Numbered from the stretch's first letter, positions 809 to 10,790 are shown. The stretch is DNA of 11,252 bases from Candidatus Eiseniibacteriota bacterium (GCA_043810925.1 JBDRNT010000168.1:1-11252); one strand, 5' to 3'. Translations and numbers: made by a program. Notes: generated by a model from the letters alone, not told the origin.

Positions 809-1535
809 ATGCTGACCAAGGAAGTCAGGGATTATCTAGCGCTGAGCAAGAAGAAGGTCGTCCTTGAGTTTGCCCGAGAGGTTGGGAGTGATGCCAAGTC
901 CTATCGCTCTTACGAGGTACCGAGATCCACATTCTATCGGTGGAAGAGGGCATTTGCGAAGGATGGTGAAGCCGGCTTAGTTCGGAAGAAACCTGTGGCA
1001 ATGAGCCATCCGCGCCAGTTAGCCCCGGAGGTCGTCGAGAAGGTTCTCCATCTCAGGCGGATCTACCACCTCGGACCTCAGAGAATCACCTGGTATCTTG
1101 AGCGCTATCACGGCGTGCAGACCTCCTGCTCCACAGTCTACCGCACCCTCATTCGCAACGGTATGAGGCGATTGCCAAAGAATGTGGGTCGTCGGGCGAT
1201 CCATACACGCCGCTACGCCAAGCAAGTGCCTGGCCACCACATCCAGGTGGACGTCAAGTTCCTCAGCCTTAAGACCAAGGATGACAGCAGGGTCCGCCGT
1301 TTTCAGTACACCGCCATCGATGATGCTACCAGAGTCCGGGCTCTGAAGATCTACAGGCGTCATAACCAGAAGAATGCCATAGACTTCATTGACTACGTGA
1401 TTGAGAAGTTCCCGTTCCGCATCCATACGGTCCGTACAGACCGGGGCCATGAGTTCCAGGCCCAATTCCACTGGCACGTCGAAGACAAGGGGGTGAGGCA
1501 TGTATACATCAAACCGCGTACGCCGCAACTCAAGG
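809..1535 (+). pseudogene. IS481-family transposase, 5' part (HTH plus the first two Asp of the DDE triad), interrupted
   Basis: GGGGG SD before ATG 809; motifs HIQVDVK, TAIDDATR, RTDRGHEF, YIKPRTPQL. Similarity to the intact 9861..10790 protein stops abruptly at about 1535, and the ORF runs on to 1567 in foreign sequence. Confidence 0.92.
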
Positions 1536-1555
1536 ATTATGCTTCATACTGCACC
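1532..1555. other. Left att junction of the recombinase element (AAGG core plus element arm ending in TGCACC)
   Basis: Boundary of transposase homology. TGCACC (1550-1555) lies 16 nt from the AA at 1532-1533, mirroring the right arm. Confidence 0.7.
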
Positions 1556-3628
1556 CCTTCCGTTTGATTCGATAGGACCTTAGGGACCCGCCTTCTATCA
1601 TTTATCTTTCGGCCCTGGCTTTTTCGAGGAGCATCAGGTCCTGGCGGCTCGTACAAGAACTCGTTCTTATCATTGCAAACATGGCTCGGCAGCAGTCCTT
1701 CCCGACGCCACGCCTTGACTGTACAACTTTTCACACCTAATCGCTTAGCTATTTCCTCAAGGGTCAGCATTCCAGACTCGCGCAGGCGATCATAATGACT
1801 GTTCAAGCCATACTTTCGCCGGATACCCTTGATGATGTGCCTTGAGAACGGCCTGCCGGTCCCAGACTGCAGTCCACGTTGGTTAAGGATCTCTACGATC
1901 TGTCCGTCTGTATGACGATTGACAAGCACATCGATTTCCTCTACAACAGCGCGTGGAGTGGTCCTTTCTTCCCAGGCGGACCTGGGAAGAGGCAGTTCCA
2001 ACGTGGTGGACGTTCCTCCTTTGAAGCATACGTGCATCGTAATCTGGTCCTTCTTGATCAGCGTGACATCCTCGAGCAACAGTCGCACCATGCGCTTGCG
2101 GTCCCGGTCTGAGGTATTGGGATCCTTCCACAGTCGAGGAAAATCAGCAGTCAGTGCCGTCACGCGACTCCGCACTTCTTCATCCACCTCGAGCCGATCC
2201 GCTTGGCGCTCGCGCTCATAATCCTCCTGTGCTTTCTCGAAGTCACGAAGTTTCTCATTCCACTCCGCCTCAAGGACATCCGCAACCAGACGATTGTTGG
2301 GATCCACCTGCATGTATCGCCTCTGGGCAAGCTCCGCTTCATAACGAACCCGTTGGACCTGTTGAGCGCGCAGCCTGTCTGCTTCCTCGAGGCGAGATGC
2401 CAGTTCCTGCTGCACCACCAGCGCGACGTCCAACGTCAAGGGTGTGATCATCTCAAGCAAAAGATCACCAATGGCCACATCGATTCCTCCTCCAGAGATA
2501 CGCTGGCAGGGTCTTTCGCCATGGGCGATCCCCTCGCGCTGACATAGGTAGTCTGGTGTCAGACGCCCTCTGCGTACATGATACCGTAGAGTCATACGTT
2601 TTCCACAGATACCGCACCACACGATGCCTTGCAGTAATGAGGGTCCTTCCCGGGGAGGGCTCTTACGGCGATCATGACCATACGCTTGTGATGCTGCTCG
2701 CAGACGTCGCTGATTATCTTCATAATCCTGCCAGGTAATATATCCTTGATGGGCATCGGGGATAAGTATCTGCCAGTCGGCTCGATCCAGTCTTTCCTGG
2801 TATTCGACACCATCGATGCGTTTCCTTGTCCTCGTTCGCCCGAAGACGAACGCACCGGCGTAGCGGGGGTTATGCAACAGCTGCAGTGCACGGCCGTGTT
2901 CCAGTTCAGCCCAGACAAGTTCACCTTTGCGTGGTCCTTTGCGCAGACGGCGCGGGAAAAGAAGCCCTTCCTTGTGAAAGTGCTTTACCACACCCAGGGC
3001 GCTACCTAAACGGCGGTATGTCGCAAAGAAAAGAGCTATTGTCTCTCGTACCTGCTTATCGGGATCCAGTTGTACCCGCTTCCGGGCATCGTATGAAAGA
3101 CCCACCGGTAAGGGGCCGGCGAGTTCACCCCGGCGCGCTTTGCTCAAGATACCTCCCCGAAGACGCGCTCGTAGAAGATGCAATTCCGCCTCACTCATCG
3201 TACCCTTAAGTCCCAGTAAGAGCCGGTCGTTGAAGCTATTGGGGTTGTACAGACCATCCTCATCGAGGATCAACGTGTCTGACAGGGCACAGATCTCCAA
3301 CAGGCGGTGCCAGTCGGTAGAGTTACGGGCAAGACGTGAGACCTCAAGGCCCAGGACGATTCCTGCCCGCCCCATACCCACTTCAGAGACAAGAGTCTGG
3401 AAGCCTTTGCGGTCTACCGCGCTCGGCCCCGGACTGGCCCAGGTCCGAGTCGATCACATGGACCCGCTCCAGCGGCCACCCGAGTGCCACCGCCCGCTGG
3501 CGCAATGCATACTGCTGCTTTGTGCTCTCGCTATTTTCCAATACCTGCCGCAACGTAGATTGGCGAACGTAAAGGTATGCATCCCGCTTCAGATGTGAGG
3601 CGGTCACTTTCAAACTCGCTTCGCTCAT
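1537..3628 (-). pseudogene. Large serine recombinase (resolvase, recombinase, zinc-ribbon, coiled-coil and C-terminal HTH domains), about 696 aa if the 1-bp frameshift at about 3424-3426 is corrected
   Basis: ORF 3383..3634 has the catalytic YVRQST and DSDLGQSG motifs. ORF 1537..3381 has EVSRLARN, LHNPRYAG, LLQGIVWCGICG...YLC...C and TLEEIAKRLGVKSCTVKAWRREGLL. Deleting one base in GGGGCCGAGC gives continuous GQSGASAVDRKGFQTLVSEVGMG. SD AAGGGGG lies 6 nt before ATG 3628. Confidence 0.9.
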
Positions 3629-3944
3629 GCGCATCCCCCTTCCGACTGTTATTAAGCACCATGCTGACCAGGGCTGTTATGAGCTCACCGCGCAACCTAC
3701 CGGAGAGTTCCATGTCGGGTTGCCACGACTCCACTCGTCCAGAATCGCTCATCTTCTCGACATCTGTCGGAGACATGTAGGCCTGCCACACCTTGATCCA
3801 CGCGGCCATGCCACGGCTAAGAAACAATGCCAGACCCGCCGAGCCTTCACTTCCACCCATTGCCTGCCGGCGGAGAGACTGGTAGGCACCAATCAACTCC
3901 CGGCTGGATGATAGAGAAGATGACCGGCCGGCTCGGTTCATCAT
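3531..3944 (-). CDS. Small accessory protein of the recombinase element (y4bB-like position), 137 aa
   Basis: Distal part of ORF 3531..4511. ATG 3944 overlaps the HTH gene stop (ATGA). Core motif YQSLRRQAMGG...GLALFLSRGMAAW. Its 3' end overlaps the recombinase start by 98 nt. Confidence 0.65.
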   Translation of the reverse strand: MMNRAGRSSSLSSSRELIGAYQSLRRQAMGGSEGSAGLALFLSRGMAAWIKVWQAYMSPTDVEKMSDSGRVESWQPDMELSGRLRGELITALVSMVLNNSRKGDAHERSEFESDRLTSEAGCIPLRSPIYVAAGIGK

Positions 3945-4411
3945 CGCTGACCTTTTTTTTGGCGCCGCGCCAGTGCTCGTTCGATACTGCGCGGGTGAAC
4001 AGTGATGCCAAAACGCGATTCTACCCGATCGGCCAAAGCTCTCGCGCCAAGAGAAGGCTCTTCGCCGAGCATCTCTTCGACATAATCCAGAACACCGTCG
4101 GTGAGCTTGTGGGCCCGCTGGGGACCTCGGCGTCGTGGGAACAGTCCCGCCAGACCGTTTTCTAAGAATCGCTTGCGGATCTCGTAGAACGTCACGCGTG
4201 AGAAACCAAATGACGGGGCAACCTGGATCACCGGGCGCCTCTCTTCGCTCGCCTGACGTAGCATCTCGTACTTTACCTGCAACAAATCGTTGGGATCGAA
4301 GAACTCGCTTTTCTCGAACAGCGGGTTGGTTACAGCCCGGGGATGGGGATTGAGCGTCCCCTCCTTGCGCAGGGCCTCGTGCTTGGAATCGCCGCGGGAC
4401 TTGCCGGCCAT
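3941..4411 (-). CDS. Helix-turn-helix (homeodomain-like, transposase-N-terminus type) protein, y4bC-like, 156 aa
   Basis: Strong SD AAGGAGG before ATG 4411; motifs FFDPNDLLQVKYEMLR, FGFSRVTFY, GLAGLFPRRRGP..AHKLT, ITVHPRSIERAL. No DDE domain. Confidence 0.85.
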   Translation of the reverse strand: MAGKSRGDSKHEALRKEGTLNPHPRAVTNPLFEKSEFFDPNDLLQVKYEMLRQASEERRPVIQVAPSFGFSRVTFYEIRKRFLENGLAGLFPRRRGPQRAHKLTDGVLDYVEEMLGEEPSLGARALADRVESRFGITVHPRSIERALARRQKKGQR

Positions 4412-4443
4412 GGTAGCCTCCTTCTATCGGGGACCAATCCGTC

Positions 4444-4459
4444 ATTGTGCGATCACAAT
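4444..4459. promoter_or_regulatory. Operator-like palindrome ATTGTG-N4-CACAAT
   Basis: Perfect 6-bp inverted repeat just downstream of the predicted -10 box. Confidence 0.45.
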
Positions 4460-4470
4460 ATGTTAAGTAT

Positions 4471-4498
4471 ATTATGCACCAGCCCAATCTCGTGTCAA
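4471..4498 (-). promoter_or_regulatory. Sigma70-type promoter for the HTH-orf-recombinase operon
   Basis: TTGACA (4498-4493), 16 nt, then CATAAT (4476-4471), with an A-rich UP-like tract upstream in an AT-rich intergenic region. Confidence 0.65.
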
Positions 4499-4601
4499 TT
4501 TCTTTTTTCACTAATCACCCTAATAATGAATGAGTTACCATGCTTCAGTTCCCCTATCATATCATTTCACTGTACACCAATCGGCATAATACACTTTACA
4601 C

Positions 4602-4931
4602 TCATGCTTGCCCCTCACGGCCCCGACAAGCCGGCACCTTCTCCGAGACAGCCTCCAGAAGCCCGGACAACTTCATAAGATCCGCAAGCCGAAACGGTGA
4701 TCGGCCAGCGGCCACATTCACAAATGGATCTACCGGGAAGATGCTTGTCCAACGAGCAGGAACTGAACTGAGCTTGCCCTCATCGTCGTGGAAGTAGACC
4801 CGATCTTCGCCCCAGTTATGACGGTACGTCACCAGCGAAAACGATCGACCGTATAAGAAATGGAATCGATGGGTGATCTGAAAAGTTTGCACCTTACCGT
4901 CGCCGGCAGGTGCACTTGACACTCGAGTCAA
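4602..4931 (-). CDS. DUF5372 / Y4bD-Y4pK-like small protein, 5'-truncated in the integrated state
   Basis: Motifs ITHRFHFLYGRSF, WGEDRVYF, SVPARWTS, DPF...GRSPFRLADL recalled as DUF5372. The frame is open up to the element end with no SD at the TTG at 4931; a probable true ATG is at 1547 on the opposite end. Confidence 0.75.
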   Translation of the reverse strand: MTRVSSAPAGDGKVQTFQITHRFHFLYGRSFSLVTYRHNWGEDRVYFHDDEGKLSSVPARWTSIFPVDPFVNVAAGRSPFRLADLMKLSGLLEAVSEKVPACRGREGQA

Positions 4932-4934
4932 AGG
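4909..4934. other. Right att junction of the recombinase element
   Basis: GGTGCA (4909-4914) lies 16 nt from the AA at 4931-4932, followed by the AAGG core; transposase homology resumes immediately after. Confidence 0.7.
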
Positions 4935-5116
4935 GCAAGGTCGAGAGATCCCACCGGTCAGACCAGGAGGAGTTCTACCAATTGCTGACGTATACGGACG
5001 ATGTAGATCTGAACGAGAAACTGAGAGAATGGGAGCGGTTCTACAACTACGATAGACCGCACGGAGCTTCTAACGGAAAAACACCTTACGAGGCATTGAG
5101 GGCTATGTTACAATAA
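4931..5116 (+). pseudogene. IS481-family transposase, 3' part (catalytic Glu and C-terminus)
   Basis: KGKVERSHRSDQEEFYQLL...WERFYNYDRPHGASNGKTPYE aligns with the C-terminus of the 9861..10790 protein. Confidence 0.92.
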
Positions 5117-5157: not shown

Positions 5158-8100
5158 TTACTGCCAGCTTCCTGAGGCTACGAAGGCAGCCCAGCCATAA
5201 GGGTGATCGCACCTGCCCTGGGAGCGAAGCTCCTCTATCGCAGCCAGCTGAATCCGGCGGATGGCTTCAGGCAGGGTTTCCCCACCTCTGCCATAAAGCT
5301 GCTCCATCATGTCCGCAGTCGACTCATCCGATATTGGCCAGAGGGCGCTCAACACGACCCTCACCCCCGCCATCTGAAAGGCCCTGCGCAGTCCATATAC
5401 TCCTTCCCCTTCCCTCACCTCGCCCAGAGCGCTCTCGCATGCCGATAGAACCACGGCCTCCGTATGATTGAGCCGCATCCCGGACACTTCGAAGGCGGTC
5501 ACCACGCCATCCTCGCAGCCCAGGCTGTCCGCAACCCTCCCACCCAAGTTTGCGCCGGCAAGGAGGAGTCCCGACAGAAGCAGAGGGTTCTCCCCGATGA
5601 ACTCACTCCCGGCCTCGGGGGCCTTTCCCGCGTCGGGAGTGCACTTGCCCCCCAGGAAGTAGCCATGCGTCGCAAGATGTATCACCCTGCTGTCCGGGGC
5701 CATCGCCTTAAGATTCTCCTCGCTTGCCTCGCGGCCACAATAGACTGTGACAGGTTCGGAGGTGGCGCCGGCCCAAGCCTCGCCTATTCTTTCCACTTCC
5801 CTGCGCGAATGGGGAAGGGGTGGGACCTTCATCGCAAGGAGATCATCGCATGCGGTCCGAGCACTCCGTGTTCCACTACTGCAAGCGAGTAGTGAGTCCC
5901 GTTCCGTCGGTTGAATCATCGACAGATGTTCGGCATCACTCACCTCATAATCCGGGTCACCAAGAGCAAGAAGCCCGCTGCCGACCGGCCAGTCATGCTC
6001 CAGTCGGGCCAGATCGCGACCAGCCGAGAGATAGTGAATTGTGTTGGTCTCGACCAGATACAAGCCATCGGGCCGGATGAGGCCGGCAAACGAGACCAGG
6101 TTCAATCCGGCATCAGGGGCGATGAATGCCGTCTCACCACCCGACAGGAAAGGTTCGACCGGACGCACCACAGCGCGATAGAGGTCCGCTGCTATGGATG
6201 CGTAGTCATCCTTGTCGGGCTCGACGGGTAAATGCTCCGCTGAGGCGACCCTCAGCATGTGCTCCCTGTACCGGGTTACAATTCCGTCTATCTCGCGCGC
6301 TTCTCCGAGATCAAGCAGGGCGGGCTCGCCGGTCTTATGGATGATCATGACCAGGTAGTGTGGGACTGTGTTGGCCGTCAGCGTCCGGTAGGAGTCGAAT
6401 TTCAGGTATTCAACCAGTACGGTAGCCTCGGGCAGGATCTCTTGTATCCGTGAGAAGTCGACATCCTTTGCCAGCTGCCGTCTTCTGAAACTGGCGCTCC
6501 GTCGAGCGAGGGCGGATTCAAGCTCGCCTGCCGCAGTGCTCAGCGAATCCATGAGATGAGAGTACGCCTCGGTCCCTTCGTCTCCCGGGCCGGCGACGAA
6601 GCGCTGAGAGATCTCGAGCTGAACATCCCTGAGGGCATCGGCAAGGCCCAGGCCTACAGAGTCGGTCGCTTCAACCAGCGCCGCCCGCCGTTCGAAGATT
6701 CCGTCTGAAACACTGCCCTTTGAATGGAGCACGATATCGGCCAAGCAGCGGGTGTCCTGGGCGGTTGCGGCATCGCAGCCGAAATAGCAGGAAATGTATT
6801 TGTCAGCAGAGGTACGCATTTCCTTTGAGTATTTCAAAGCATCCCGTTCGGCGAGCGCATACGAATTATCGCTGAAGTTCTTAAACCTGATGCCGAACGC
6901 GCGGTTGCTGAGCTCCATTGCCCTCTCATCATCCTGCGTTAGGCGGCAGAGCCAGCTCAGCGATTCCAGCGCTTCCGCCACATCCGGGTGGTTTTCGCCG
7001 AGTCCCTTCTCGGTTATCGCCAGGCCGCGCTCCAGGTATGATCGGGCTTCTGCGTATCTGCCCATGGCAACATAGAGATTGCCGAGATTGCAGCGGCTCC
7101 AGCCGGCCATGTGATGGTCCGGGCCCGAAGTCTCTTCATAGATCGCGAGGGCCTCGGTAAAGAGCGATTCGGCCTCGCTATATCGCTCCTGCATCTGAAG
7201 CAGGAGAGCCAGGTTACTCAGATTCCTGGCATAGCTGGGATGGTCAAAGCCATAGAAGTCCCGCCACATGGGCAGCGCCCGCCTATGATATTCCTCAGCC
7301 TTTGCATAGTCTCCCTTAACCTCGTATACGCCGCCAAGGTTGCTAAGGCTAGAGGCAATATAAATATGCCCCGGGGGCAGGTGCTTCTCGGCAATAGCGA
7401 GGGATCGCTTGTAATATGCCTCGGCGTCATCATACCTGCCTTGATACCAGTAGAGAGTTGCCAGATCGTTGGTGAACATGCCGATCCGCAGGTCATCCGG
7501 GCCGAGTGTCTCTTCCACCAGGGCGAGGGCGCGTTTGTAGACTTCCTCTGCTTCCGCATATCTGGCCTGCTCTCTGTATGCCCTTCCCAGACTGCTCAGG
7601 CTCATGGCGACGGCCGGGTTCGCGCTTCCGAGATTTCTCTCTCTGTTGGCAAGAGCATAGAGCTGGAGACGCTCGGCCTCGGCGTACTTCCCATGTTCGT
7701 GGTAAACGACGGACCCAAAAAAGAACAGGTTACCGAGACTGGGTTCGATGTACATGTCATCGCCGTACAACTCGTGACAGATGCCGAGAGCTTTCTCGAC
7801 GAGATCCTCTGCGGTCTGGTAGTCGGCCAGATTGTAGCAAGCGAGGGCCAGCCGGTTCAGAGATGTGACCACATCCATATTGTTGGGCCCCAGGGCGGTT
7901 TCCCGGATTGCCAGGGCCCGCTCCGCGAGCTGTCGCGCCTCCTCGTACCTGTATTGGTCGAGAACCGCGCCGGCAAGTTCGGCGAGAGTGGTTGCAACAT
8001 CCAGATGATCGGGTCCGAGCAGCCGCTCTCTGATCTCGAGCGCCCGCGTGAAGAGCGATTCGGCCCGGCTGTTATTCCCGACGCCCTTGCTGTAGAGTCC

Positions 8101-8337
8101 CAGATGATGAATGATTAGCGCGGTCGCCGAGTCGGGTTCACTCAGAGTCTCGATCGCTGTGTCGAGAGCCTCTTGTCCGACCACGAATGCCGAGTCGTAC
8201 TCCTCGGCCTGGTAGAGTGAGTCGGCAAGGCTGAGCAAATCCCCCCAGGTCCCGGCCGAGCACTGGGCGTACGAAGCGAGAACGGTAGCAACCAGAATCG
8301 GGACAACATGCTTTCTCACCGACGACTGACGCCTCAT
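5158..8337 (-). CDS. TPR-repeat plus CHAT-domain (caspase/HetF-like cysteine peptidase) protein with a predicted signal peptide
   Basis: About 9-10 tandem 42-aa kinesin-light-chain-type TPRs (e.g. AESLFTRALEIRERLLGPDHLDVATTLAELA). CHAT motifs IAPDAGL, HLATHG (His 5665-5667), LSACES (Cys 5437-5439), GLRRAF, SALWPISD, HPYGWAAF. A purine-rich SD favours ATG 8337 over TTG 8361. Confidence 0.93.
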   Translation of the reverse strand: MRRQSSVRKHVVPILVATVLASYAQCSAGTWGDLLSLADSLYQAEEYDSAFVVGQEALDTAIETLSEPDSATALIIHHLGLYSKGVGNNSRAESLFTRALEIRERLLGPDHLDVATTLAELAGAVLDQYRYEEARQLAERALAIRETALGPNNMDVVTSLNRLALACYNLADYQTAEDLVEKALGICHELYGDDMYIEPSLGNLFFFGSVVYHEHGKYAEAERLQLYALANRERNLGSANPAVAMSLSSLGRAYREQARYAEAEEVYKRALALVEETLGPDDLRIGMFTNDLATLYWYQGRYDDAEAYYKRSLAIAEKHLPPGHIYIASSLSNLGGVYEVKGDYAKAEEYHRRALPMWRDFYGFDHPSYARNLSNLALLLQMQERYSEAESLFTEALAIYEETSGPDHHMAGWSRCNLGNLYVAMGRYAEARSYLERGLAITEKGLGENHPDVAEALESLSWLCRLTQDDERAMELSNRAFGIRFKNFSDNSYALAERDALKYSKEMRTSADKYISCYFGCDAATAQDTRCLADIVLHSKGSVSDGIFERRAALVEATDSVGLGLADALRDVQLEISQRFVAGPGDEGTEAYSHLMDSLSTAAGELESALARRSASFRRRQLAKDVDFSRIQEILPEATVLVEYLKFDSYRTLTANTVPHYLVMIIHKTGEPALLDLGEAREIDGIVTRYREHMLRVASAEHLPVEPDKDDYASIAADLYRAVVRPVEPFLSGGETAFIAPDAGLNLVSFAGLIRPDGLYLVETNTIHYLSAGRDLARLEHDWPVGSGLLALGDPDYEVSDAEHLSMIQPTERDSLLACSSGTRSARTACDDLLAMKVPPLPHSRREVERIGEAWAGATSEPVTVYCGREASEENLKAMAPDSRVIHLATHGYFLGGKCTPDAGKAPEAGSEFIGENPLLLSGLLLAGANLGGRVADSLGCEDGVVTAFEVSGMRLNHTEAVVLSACESALGEVREGEGVYGLRRAFQMAGVRVVLSALWPISDESTADMMEQLYGRGGETLPEAIRRIQLAAIEELRSQGRCDHPYGWAAFVASGSWQ

Positions 8338-8625
8338 CGGGAACTCACCCTTCCTCGACAAGAATCATATCCGCGGTGAGGTCTAAAGATCAAGCTCCTT
8401 CTATCATCCCCGTGCGCCCTACATCTCCCACATGGGGCATGGCACAAATTCGTTGATTTTCCGCTCCGTAAGGGATGTAATCGCAGTATGCGAGCATACA
8501 GAGCTTCCGCCCGGCGAAGCGGGGGATGTGCTTCATGGTCGCCTTACACTGCAAACTCGGCATACCTCGGTGTCTCACTTATATTGGCACAGTGGTACTT
8601 AGTCCAGCATCTGGTTCTAGGCAGT

Positions 8626-9860: not shown

Positions 9861-10790
9861 TCACACTTGTGGAAACACGGTTTTCCCCTCGCGGAGTCTC
9901 TCTCTGAGCACTTCGAAAGGTGTTTTTCCTTGATGTGACGTATGAGGCCGCTGGAAGTTGTAGAAATCCTCCCATTCCTTGAGTTTCTCATTCAGATCTA
10001 CATCGCCGGTATAACTCAGTAACTGATAGAACTCGATATGGTCGCTAAGATGTGAGCGTTCCACCTTTCCGTTGAGGTTCGGTCTCCCGGGTTTGATATA
10101 CTCATGTCTGATTCCAAGGTCCTCCACATGCCAGTGGAACTTTGCCTGCCATTCATGACCATTATCCGTACGAATTGTCTGTATCCGGAACGGAAACTTG
10201 CGGACGACATACTCCACAAACTTGATTGCTGTTACCTGGTTGTGCCTGGGATAGACCTTCAATGCCCGGACCCGTGTGGCGTCGTCAATAGCCGTGTATT
10301 GGTACCGCCTGACCTTCTTCCCACTGGGCCCACGCAGGCTCAGGAACTTAACGTCCATCTGGATGTGGTGACCCGGTACCTGCTTCTCGTAGCGGTGGGT
10401 CTTCACCTCTCTGCGCCTCGTATTCCGCGGAAGCCGGCTCATCCCGTGCCGTCTCAGCACCCTGTAGGTCGTACTCTCGGATGTCGCCAGATCAGGATGA
10501 TACCGCTTCATATACCAGCAGATACGATCTGGGCCCAGGTGGTAGGTCTTCCTCAGGTATAGAATCTTCTCTTCAGCCTCCGGTGTGGTGGCCCGGATGC
10601 TGGGGTTCTCGGGGCAGGGCTTGTAGTTTATCAGTCCCTTCTCACCATCCTTCTCATAGCGATGTTTCCAGTCGTAAAAGGTCTGTCGTGAGATCCCAAA
10701 GTGGCGGCAGGCTTTAGATATGTCGCCCACCTTCCCGGCGTACCTAAAGACCCTGAGCTTACGCTTTATCTCCCTCTCTGCCTTTGACAT
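9861..10790 (-). CDS. IS481-family DDE transposase, 309 aa
   Basis: HTH (ISKACRHFGISRQTFYDW), HIQMDVK, RTDNGHE, PNLNGKVERSH, YNFQRPH..HQGKTP; SD AAGGAG; the stop codon lies inside IRR. Confidence 0.95.
   Translation of the reverse strand: MSKAEREIKRKLRVFRYAGKVGDISKACRHFGISRQTFYDWKHRYEKDGEKGLINYKPCPENPSIRATTPEAEEKILYLRKTYHLGPDRICWYMKRYHPDLATSESTTYRVLRRHGMSRLPRNTRRREVKTHRYEKQVPGHHIQMDVKFLSLRGPSGKKVRRYQYTAIDDATRVRALKVYPRHNQVTAIKFVEYVVRKFPFRIQTIRTDNGHEWQAKFHWHVEDLGIRHEYIKPGRPNLNGKVERSHLSDHIEFYQLLSYTGDVDLNEKLKEWEDFYNFQRPHTSHQGKTPFEVLRERLREGKTVFPQV

Follow-up and report, generated by a model that had tools for sequence, protein, structure and literature searches.

An insertion-sequence-sized transposon with a large serine recombinase, and its relatives' probable preference for the catalytic-glutamate region of DDE transposase genes

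We analyzed a stretch of 11,252 nucleotides from Candidatus Eiseniibacteriota bacterium (GCA_043810925.1 JBDRNT010000168.1:1-11252), referred to as the window in the following. In the window, a gene for an IS481-family DDE transposase is interrupted by an element of 3,399 bp that carries a large serine recombinase (LSR) and three accessory genes. Judging from its relatives, the element very probably belongs to a widespread family of LSR transposons of insertion sequence (IS) size, whose preferred target is the DNA encoding the catalytic-glutamate region of DDE (rve-type) transposases. Most likely these are cut-and-paste, circle-forming transposons that parasitize other insertion sequences. It is the behavior of the family that is of interest; the window copy itself is ordinary and probably inactive.

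The insert comprises positions 1534–4930 together with one AA (3,399 bp counting one copy), and the tetranucleotide AAGG is present at both junctions (1532–1535 and 4931–4934). The original prediction, made from the sequence alone, had placed an insert of this length here, and the insert is real. The plus-strand open reading frame (ORF) 809–1567 is of IS481 type up to position 1531 and continues into foreign sequence. Its host part matches the NCBIfam model transpos_IS481 with an E-value of 3.3e-46 (profile positions 17–227 of 284) and scores 158 bits on its own against an equivalog cut-off of 224 bits set for the whole protein. The same frame resumes at position 4931 as KGKVERSHRSDQEEFYQLL... 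(KGKVERSHR...) and runs for 61 residues to a stop at 5116, so that the predicted restoration of the transposase by clean removal of the insert was borne out. An intact paralogue of 309 residues (9861–10790, minus strand) reads ...KPGRPNLNGKVERSH... over the site, with ...IKPGRPNLNGKVERSH... spanning the insertion point. In a paralogous fragment from the same assembly (contig G000:C51), both flanks are contiguous without an insert. Since two paralogues span the site uninterrupted, nothing else is missing from the host gene. The intact paralogue, also an IS481-family transposase, is approximately 68% identical to the interrupted gene at the DNA level. Its homologous site is unoccupied (...GRPNLNGKVERSH...), and the Lys codon of the occupied copy corresponds there to a codon for Asn. 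For the coordinates of all features see Table 1.

Table 1. Features of the element and of the interrupted transposase gene (positions in the window).
Feature	Position	Strand	Remarks
Host IS481-family DDE transposase, N-terminal part	809–1531	+	ends ...YIKPRTPQL; Pfam rve and HTH_32 match
AA (TT on the element coding strand), first copy of the crossover dinucleotide	1532–1533	.	within AAGG
Right arm, GGTGCAGTATGAAGCATAATCC in element orientation	1534–1555	-	contains the recombinase stop codon (1537–1539); 21/21 specified consensus positions
Large serine recombinase, C-terminal 614 residues	1537–3381	-	end of the catalytic domain, recombinase domain, zinc ribbon, C-terminal extension with a MerR/HTH_17-like helix-turn-helix
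Recombinase, N-terminal fragment	3383–3634	-	...AYLYVRQST...; Resolvase profile positions 1–51
Small accessory ORF	3531–3944	-	conserved Y-E-x-L-R ... G-x-x-x-W helices; homologues at the same position in relatives
Helix-turn-helix (HTH) accessory protein, 156 residues	3941–4411	-	Pfam HTH_32 (E 4.9e-14), HTH_28
Sigma-70-like promoter TTGACA-16-CATAAT	4471–4498	-	DUF5372/HTH intergenic region; 11/12 matches
DUF5372 protein	4602–4892	-	PF17342 (E 3.6e-22); probable GTG start at 4892; listed ORF starts with TTG at 4931
Left arm, TGACTCGAGTGTCAAGTGCACC in element orientation	4909–4930	-	directly after the crossover; 14/16 specified consensus positions
AA, second copy of the crossover dinucleotide	4931–4932	.	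junction sequence
Host transposase, C-terminal part	4933–5116	+	with AA reads KGKVERSHRSDQEEF...; catalytic-glutamate motif; compared with intact paralogue P0001

The four genes of the element, coding for DUF5372, the HTH protein, the small protein and the recombinase, are all on the minus strand, as had been expected. The insert was also said to lack a DDE transposase and any cargo, and this is what we found: a Pfam search detected no DDE domain in it, and none of its six longest plus-strand ORFs matches a Pfam family. Rfam gave no match anywhere in the window. The 614-residue part of the recombinase matches the Pfam families Recombinase (PF07508, E 6.5e-12), Resolvase (E 2e-07), Zn_ribbon_recom (E 1e-05) and MerR_1 (E 1.2e-06), the zinc ribbon PF13408 scoring 26.3 bits at a cut-off of 25.3. 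The Resolvase profile PF00239 is divided between the 83-residue N-terminal fragment (profile positions 1–51) and the 614-residue part (66–144). The domain order is thus catalytic, recombinase, zinc ribbon, HTH. The motif ...YVRQST... aligns with intact relatives, which are approximately 690 residues long, and its serine is presumed to be the catalytic nucleophile. A phmmer search of the recombinase against PDB sequences yielded no match.

Relatives of the element are numerous. A tblastn search with the recombinase found 519 plasmid records with up to 12 places per record, the best identity being 59% for a protein from a Burkholderia plasmid that carries the four genes in the same order as the window element. 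Among contigs from one genome per species, at least 588 of 599 candidate stretches encode relatives of the recombinase. The 80 loci kept for comparison come from Acidobacteriota, Planctomycetota, Desulfobacterota, Chloroflexota, Gemmatimonadota, Actinomycetes, Verrucomicrobiota, Elusimicrobia, Bacillota, Proteobacteria and one archaeal metagenome-assembled genome (MAG). DUF5372 and HTH genes lie upstream of the recombinase gene in 64 of the 66 loci with at least 1,600 nt of upstream sequence (exceptions L043 and L045). The unit has a median length of 3,368 bp, and 61 of 63 copies measure 3,250–3,500 bp. The original description as an IS-sized mobile unit with an LSR and three accessory genes is supported. 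Within single genomes, a Verrucomicrobiales MAG contains 3,440-bp copies with 99.9% identity in at least three contexts, and copy pairs were found in a Bryobacterales MAG (3,407 bp at 87%) and a Desulfopila MAG (~3,380 bp at 89%). A megablast search with the NGR234 region of Sinorhizobium fredii retrieved a 3.33-kb unit recurring across rhizobial plasmids.

One could regard the element as the remnant of the integration cassette of a phage or integrative element, i.e. an integrase with directionality factors that has lost its cargo, and not as an autonomous transposon. The recombinase does match the NCBIfam XisF model weakly, with 52.7 bits and thus below the equivalog cut-off of 375, and its C-terminus contains an Xis-like HTH_17 stretch. 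Size and ends are the same in 61 of 63 copies from many phyla, however, copies occur within genomes at 99.9–100% identity, many MAG contigs are exactly unit-sized, and no phage genes are adjacent. We give this reading next to no probability.

Several individual loci deviate or add to the distribution. The assembly of the window contains another member of the recombinase family, 52% identical, on a 2.3-kb contig (G000:C138, L005), and two further ones with 44–45% identity (L003, L006) are on short contigs of a genome of the same family (G006). A contig binned as Candidatus Argoarchaeum ethanivorans (L070) carries the four-gene module with identities of 57% (recombinase), 46% (HTH protein) and 39% (DUF5372); its arms were not recognised, and the archaeal occurrence may reflect genuine spread between domains or an error in binning. 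The two ends of L043 are 6.3 kb apart, implying extra DNA inside, and L048 is a unit of 2,997 bp in which DUF5372 and the HTH frame are fused. L085 shares the left flank with L080/L081 and differs in the right flank, the element being otherwise identical, which suggests recombination or deletion between element copies in one genome.

The ends of the element are exact, as originally claimed: copy pairs within a genome stop matching at the same ends, and the same arms recur in other copies. Both ends were callable in 63 of 83 copies (right end in 74, left end in 66). In gene orientation they read flank-TT-GGNCNAAGCCGTCAACTGCACCT ... GAGGTGCAGTATGAAGCNTANNCC-TT-flank. The arms are conserved in the family as GGTGCAGT...CC-TT and TT-GG...GTCAACTGCACC, with CC and GG flanking the TT, and the window conforms to both. 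The left arm ends 50 nt before the conserved DUF5372 start, a distance that is fixed in the family, and the right arm extends over the final codons of the recombinase gene, stop included. An imperfect inverted repeat AGGTGCAGT is located 15–23 nt from the TT crossover and is conserved across phyla. In the window, the 22-nt arms show 11 of 22 inverted-repeat matches with GGTGCA/TGCACC outermost; the family mean is 11.1 of 22 compared to 5.7 in shuffled sequences, and arm positions 15, 17 and 19 pair in 91–98% of 56 unique arm pairs. The earlier statement that terminal inverted repeats are absent has to be amended accordingly, the repeat being sub-terminal. When joined, the arms would form a quasi-palindromic, attP-like site of ~46 bp; a quasi-palindromic site is the usual form of a serine-integrase attP.

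The crossover itself was located with two identical elements, L080 and L082, which differ in the base before the left TT and in the base after the right TT. These differences confine the exchange to the TT, the only bases common to flank and element, in agreement with the AA assigned as crossover in the original prediction. Judged by this sequence comparison, the exchange occurs at a 2-bp TT core without target duplication.

For the analysis of target choice, empty sites were rebuilt and translated on the strand opposite to the element genes. Sequence of at least 26 nt on both sides was available for 55 sites, 52 of them unique. The motif K/N-x-x-x-E follows the junction in 45 of the 52 unique sites, antisense to the element, in frame and exactly four codons before the glutamate, compared to 621 of 16,440 control TT sites in the same flanks (3.8%). 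Recurrent contexts are SMSRxGNPYD^NAxCESF, ANSPQA^KGRVER, DGKGRWVD^NVFVERLW, RxGNx^KGRVERAI and, in the window, KPRTPQL^KGKVER. Mapping other copies and their empty sites, as had been proposed, gave the consensus ...CCN-YAN-NNN-AA|N-GGN/GCN-NNN-NTN-GAR.... Among 50 flank ORFs of at least 100 residues, 34 match Pfam rve and 2 rva_4; with NCBIfam, the same ORFs yielded 38 matches to IS481, 25 to IS3, 15 to IS21 and 10 to ISNCY_2, including cross-matches between related models. All ten representatives were transposases, with a match that ended at one profile position per family: 311–313 of 369 for IS3 (308 in one fragment of 191 residues), 222–226 of 294 for IS21, 226–228 of 284 for IS481 and 235 of 368 for ISNCY_2. 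Nesting in a transposase gene, first seen as an accident that exposed the ends, is thus the rule among relatives.

These counts bear directly on the relaxed specificity that the original prediction had ascribed to the recombinase, with insertion into a transposase gene being incidental. Some copies do lie in genes for a citrate synthase, a deoxyribosyltransferase and a DUF5338 protein, and the joined ends and the targets share only a short C-AA-NG core. Other LSR clades are described as truly multi-targeting (PMC10083194). Against this stand the 45 of 52 sites that share one homologous codon in genes for DDE (rve) transposases and the cut point, which is fixed on the profile of each of four IS families, and we judge relaxed specificity to be very unlikely. 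Alternatively, insertion could be random and the copies could survive only in dispensable DNA such as insertion sequences, so that the observed pattern would reflect selection. Insertion sequences are indeed neutral landing places, and the idea was reportedly raised in 1997 by Perret and colleagues for the IS islands of NGR234. Selection of this kind explains neither the single exact codon and orientation within genes of ~300 codons from several IS families nor the constant TT crossover, and it is hardly more credible than relaxed specificity, if anything less so.

The preference for the catalytic-glutamate region is also seen in isolates. On plasmid pNGR234a of S. fredii NGR234, all three full copies are inserted at the same codon, one in an ISNCY and two in IS21 transposase genes. 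Two of the pNGR234a copies are 100% identical to each other, and identical copies in different IS families imply that one recombinase serves several IS families. Copies on plasmids of Rhodococcus opacus (IS3-type) and Aromatoleum EbN1 (adjoining IstB of ISAzo4) agree with this, and a Mesorhizobium plasmid copy, the left part of which is lost, has an IS21-type N-flank. On a plasmid of Streptomyces sp. YIM 121038, a copy (L115) adjoins a TniB-family gene and interrupts a frame with ...PRSPAE^KGAVERTF..., suggesting that the targets extend to Tni/Tn7-type transposase genes. A search for a near-identical empty site in the Verrucomicrobiales MAG found none, and the corresponding search for pNGR234a retrieved only IS21 relatives with 67–68% identity. 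L107 (positions 1410–1580, G041:C2), another copy of the IS21 element that harbors L082, was discarded as an empty site because it diverges into unrelated sequence 3 nt from the insertion point; it may represent another insertion, or a truncation of the IS, at the same spot.

Besides the recombinase, the accessory proteins may contribute to target recognition. The HTH protein matches NCBIfam models for IS481 (E 8.4e-13) and IS630 (E 1.8e-12) at N-terminal profile positions only, and by these matches it resembles the N-terminal DNA-binding region of such transposases; to the window's own IS481 paralogue it is 32% identical over 38 residues. The small protein has no Pfam family, and its AlphaFold2 model is all-helical (pLDDT 71). 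For the pair of HTH protein and small protein, complex prediction resulted in an ipSAE of 0.66 (three runs 0.65–0.67), whereas the best of three controls reached 0.01. Of 80 solved complexes 58 attain the pass mark of the predictor, as do 2 of 110 mismatched pairs; these counts apply only roughly here, as alignments of our own were used. Contacts agreed by at least 75% between runs, the partner had a pLDDT of 56, and the interface takes in alignment-invariant residues of both proteins. The two proteins are thus predicted to bind each other. The AlphaFold2 model of DUF5372 (pLDDT 86.6) shows a five-stranded barrel together with helices. Foldseek found nothing similar at E-values up to 0.001, and VIA-align returned only generic SH3, KOW and Tudor barrels with Z-scores of about 6 (6.2), from which no function follows.

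It is conceivable, therefore, that the recombinase provides the chemistry only and that the accessory proteins choose the target by recognizing features of IS DNA or transposase-DNA complexes. All but two of 66 loci (64) retain the three accessory genes, and this possibility would fit the similarity of the HTH protein to transposase DNA-binding regions, its predicted complex with the small protein and the shortness of the DNA core shared by element and target. On the other hand, the targeted insertion sequences differ in their ends and N-terminal domains while the codon is fixed, which points to direct reading of the local DNA, and LSRs normally read ~40–50 bp unaided. We consider targeting by the accessory proteins possible but doubtful; it would be compatible with the preferred interpretation of a codon-specific LSR transposon. 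Equally tentative is the broader view of a pan-bacterial, possibly archaeal, hyperparasite of insertion sequences. Here the recombinase, the HTH-small protein complex and DUF5372 would together read the catalytic-glutamate DNA of IS3, IS21, IS481, ISNCY and Tni-type elements, which would be switched off on insertion and exactly restored on excision.

The arrangement of the genes gives some indication of their expression. The start of the small ORF overlaps or abuts the stop of the HTH gene in the window and in several relatives. In the window the small ORF extends into the recombinase gene, and in two annotated plasmid relatives its stop overlaps the recombinase start. These three genes lie end to end behind a conserved internal promoter. 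Among 54 unique intergenic regions of relatives, 31 contain promoter hexamers with at least 10 of 12 matches, mostly the same hexamers as in the window; the best score averages 9.5, versus 7.9 in shuffled sequences. The DUF5372 start is located ~40 nt from the left end and upstream of this promoter. Because of this position between left end and promoter, DUF5372 could be co-transcribed with the recombinase only across the junction of a circle or from outside the element, which we put forward as a speculation. The G+C content drops to ~0.50 in window positions 4201–4800 (DUF5372/HTH intergenic region) as compared to 0.56–0.60 elsewhere in the element, a dip that coincides with the promoter-like site.

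Based on these data we propose the following mechanism. The recombinase would bind both ends of the element, each through a AGGTGCAGT-type motif 15–23 nt from the TT. Both ends would then be cut at the TT with a 2-nt stagger, and the half-sites would be rotated and rejoined. This would release a circle in which the joined ends constitute the attP-like site, and restore the host gene without a scar. In the next step the circle would recombine with a new site of the consensus given above, four codons before the Glu of the DDE triad. As TT is asymmetric, the element always comes to lie antisense to the transposase gene. The target IS is presumably inactivated by the insertion. Such a landing site would be harmless to the host, multi-copy, frequent on plasmids and present in most bacteria.

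A number of observations weigh against this interpretation or limit its reach. No direct sign of activity was seen, be it a circle-junction read or a read from an empty site. The assembly to which the window belongs has a single DNA copy of the element, so that the exact ends rest on the restoration of the host gene and on the multi-copy relatives; DUF5372 was found in one of 18 genomes of the window's phylum, the window's own. The 80 loci kept are those most similar to the window recombinase and mostly come from MAGs. The ends were located by consensus motifs derived from the same family, and 20 of 83 copies without one or both ends were left out. Targeting is not absolute: two copies lie within genes for a citrate synthase (L020) and a nucleoside deoxyribosyltransferase (L032). 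For L019, L053 and L064 the flank ORF matches no Pfam family, and for L088 the only match is DUF5338. L020 moreover reads K-x-x-x-E by chance, by which the count of 45 is slightly inflated. The best-kept DNA positions on the sense strand (C at -8, A at -5, G at -3, AA, G at +3 and T..GA at +10 to +13) coincide with the Pro, Gly/Ala and Glu codons, and a DNA motif of the target is therefore not separable from conservation of the target protein with these data. Finally, the window recombinase is frameshifted, with the switch of frame between ~3412 and 3425. Among the 82 copies with both parts of the recombinase, these are out of frame only in the window and in L094. A programmed frameshift is ruled out by the 80 single-frame copies, and the split reflects damage or an assembly error, not a feature of the family. 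The window copy, the ends of which are intact, is probably dead, mobilizable in trans only, or mis-assembled. Three marine metagenome runs contain 5–6% of the sequence's words and are uninformative with respect to habitat or frameshift.

The closest known relative of the window element is the y4bA-y4bD/y4pH-K repeat of pNGR234a, a resemblance pointed out in the original prediction and confirmed here. The repeat has the same gene order (DUF5372, HTH, an ORF of 88 residues and a recombinase of 694 residues), a unit of 3.3 kb and the same TGCA-N16-TT-N16-TGCA end architecture; it is likewise found at the same codon of ISNCY/IS21 transposase genes. The recombinases are 51% identical over 99% of the length. 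The window copy differs in being frameshifted and in originating from an unrelated, sparsely sampled phylum. Copies inside other insertion sequences were reportedly noted already by Perret and colleagues, who are said not to have described a serine-recombinase mechanism, a codon-level target or spread across phyla. The repeat is probably their NGRIS-4 (Perret et al. 1997, J Bacteriol 179:7488). The papers we found on NGRRS-1/NGRIS-4 only cite this study, and none of them deals with the element itself.

Serine-recombinase transposons are few, and the textbook cases, IS607 and Tn4451/Tn5397, are known for loose target choice. The present family behaves in the opposite way: its target is precise to the codon and conserved between IS families and phyla. 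Tn4451/Tn4453 (TnpX) and Tn5397 (TndX) likewise use an LSR as transposase; their crossover is 2 bp long, the target is not duplicated, and the intermediate is presumably circular. The window element differs from them by its IS size, the lack of cargo, three conserved accessory genes and a specific coding motif as target. The 'res-site hunters' Tn5053/Tn402, whose DDE transposase acts with TniB/TniQ and whose targets are resolution sites, offer an analogy only. They too aim at a functional site of other mobile elements, whereas the present family uses a serine recombinase and the region coding for the catalytic core of transposases. In the TnpX/TndX-like multi-targeting LSR clade (PMC10083194, PMC13137831), 63% of the members carry DUF4368 (PMC10083194). 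In contrast to Tn4451/Tn5397 and this clade, the window recombinase has no DUF4368 among its Pfam matches at E-values up to 0.01. That clade enters many unrelated target genes, whereas the targets here mostly belong to one superfamily and are cut at one codon; clustered at 50% identity, they would still look 'multi-targeting'. IS607 is described as an IS-sized serine-recombinase element that lacks classical terminal inverted repeats and does not duplicate its target (PMC6188088). It resembles the window element in these respects and differs in size; its small TnpA, often accompanied by TnpB, has the DNA-binding domain N-terminal to the catalytic domain and minimal target specificity. The present recombinase, in contrast, begins with the catalytic domain, followed by the recombinase and zinc-ribbon domains, and its target is specific.

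Our literature searches turned up almost nothing on the element and no paper naming DUF5372, nor did they bring up any account of the codon-level rule, of the spread across phyla or of the accessory complex. Passages of PMC10083194 nowhere mention transposase genes as LSR targets; its supplements, which include a Pfam-enrichment figure, might list target-gene domains. A mobile element living on other mobile elements would add a layer to IS population dynamics and, if the broader view holds, a natural, reversible brake on transposition. The targeting would explain 'IS islands' and nested insertion sequences in rhizobial plasmids and elsewhere. For genome annotation, many sets of 'recombinase family protein / DUF5372 / HTH' genes and many 'broken' transposase pseudogenes are two halves of one event, and DUF5372 and the unnamed small protein gain a testable role. 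As a tool, a ready-made integrase with natural landing sites already in multiple copies in most bacterial genomes and with scar-free excision would suit genetically intractable bacteria.

Next to the interrupted insertion sequence, positions 5158–8361 of the window (minus strand) encode a protein of 1,067 residues that contains many TPR repeats and, at its C-terminus, a CHAT domain (PF12770, E 3.6e-59).

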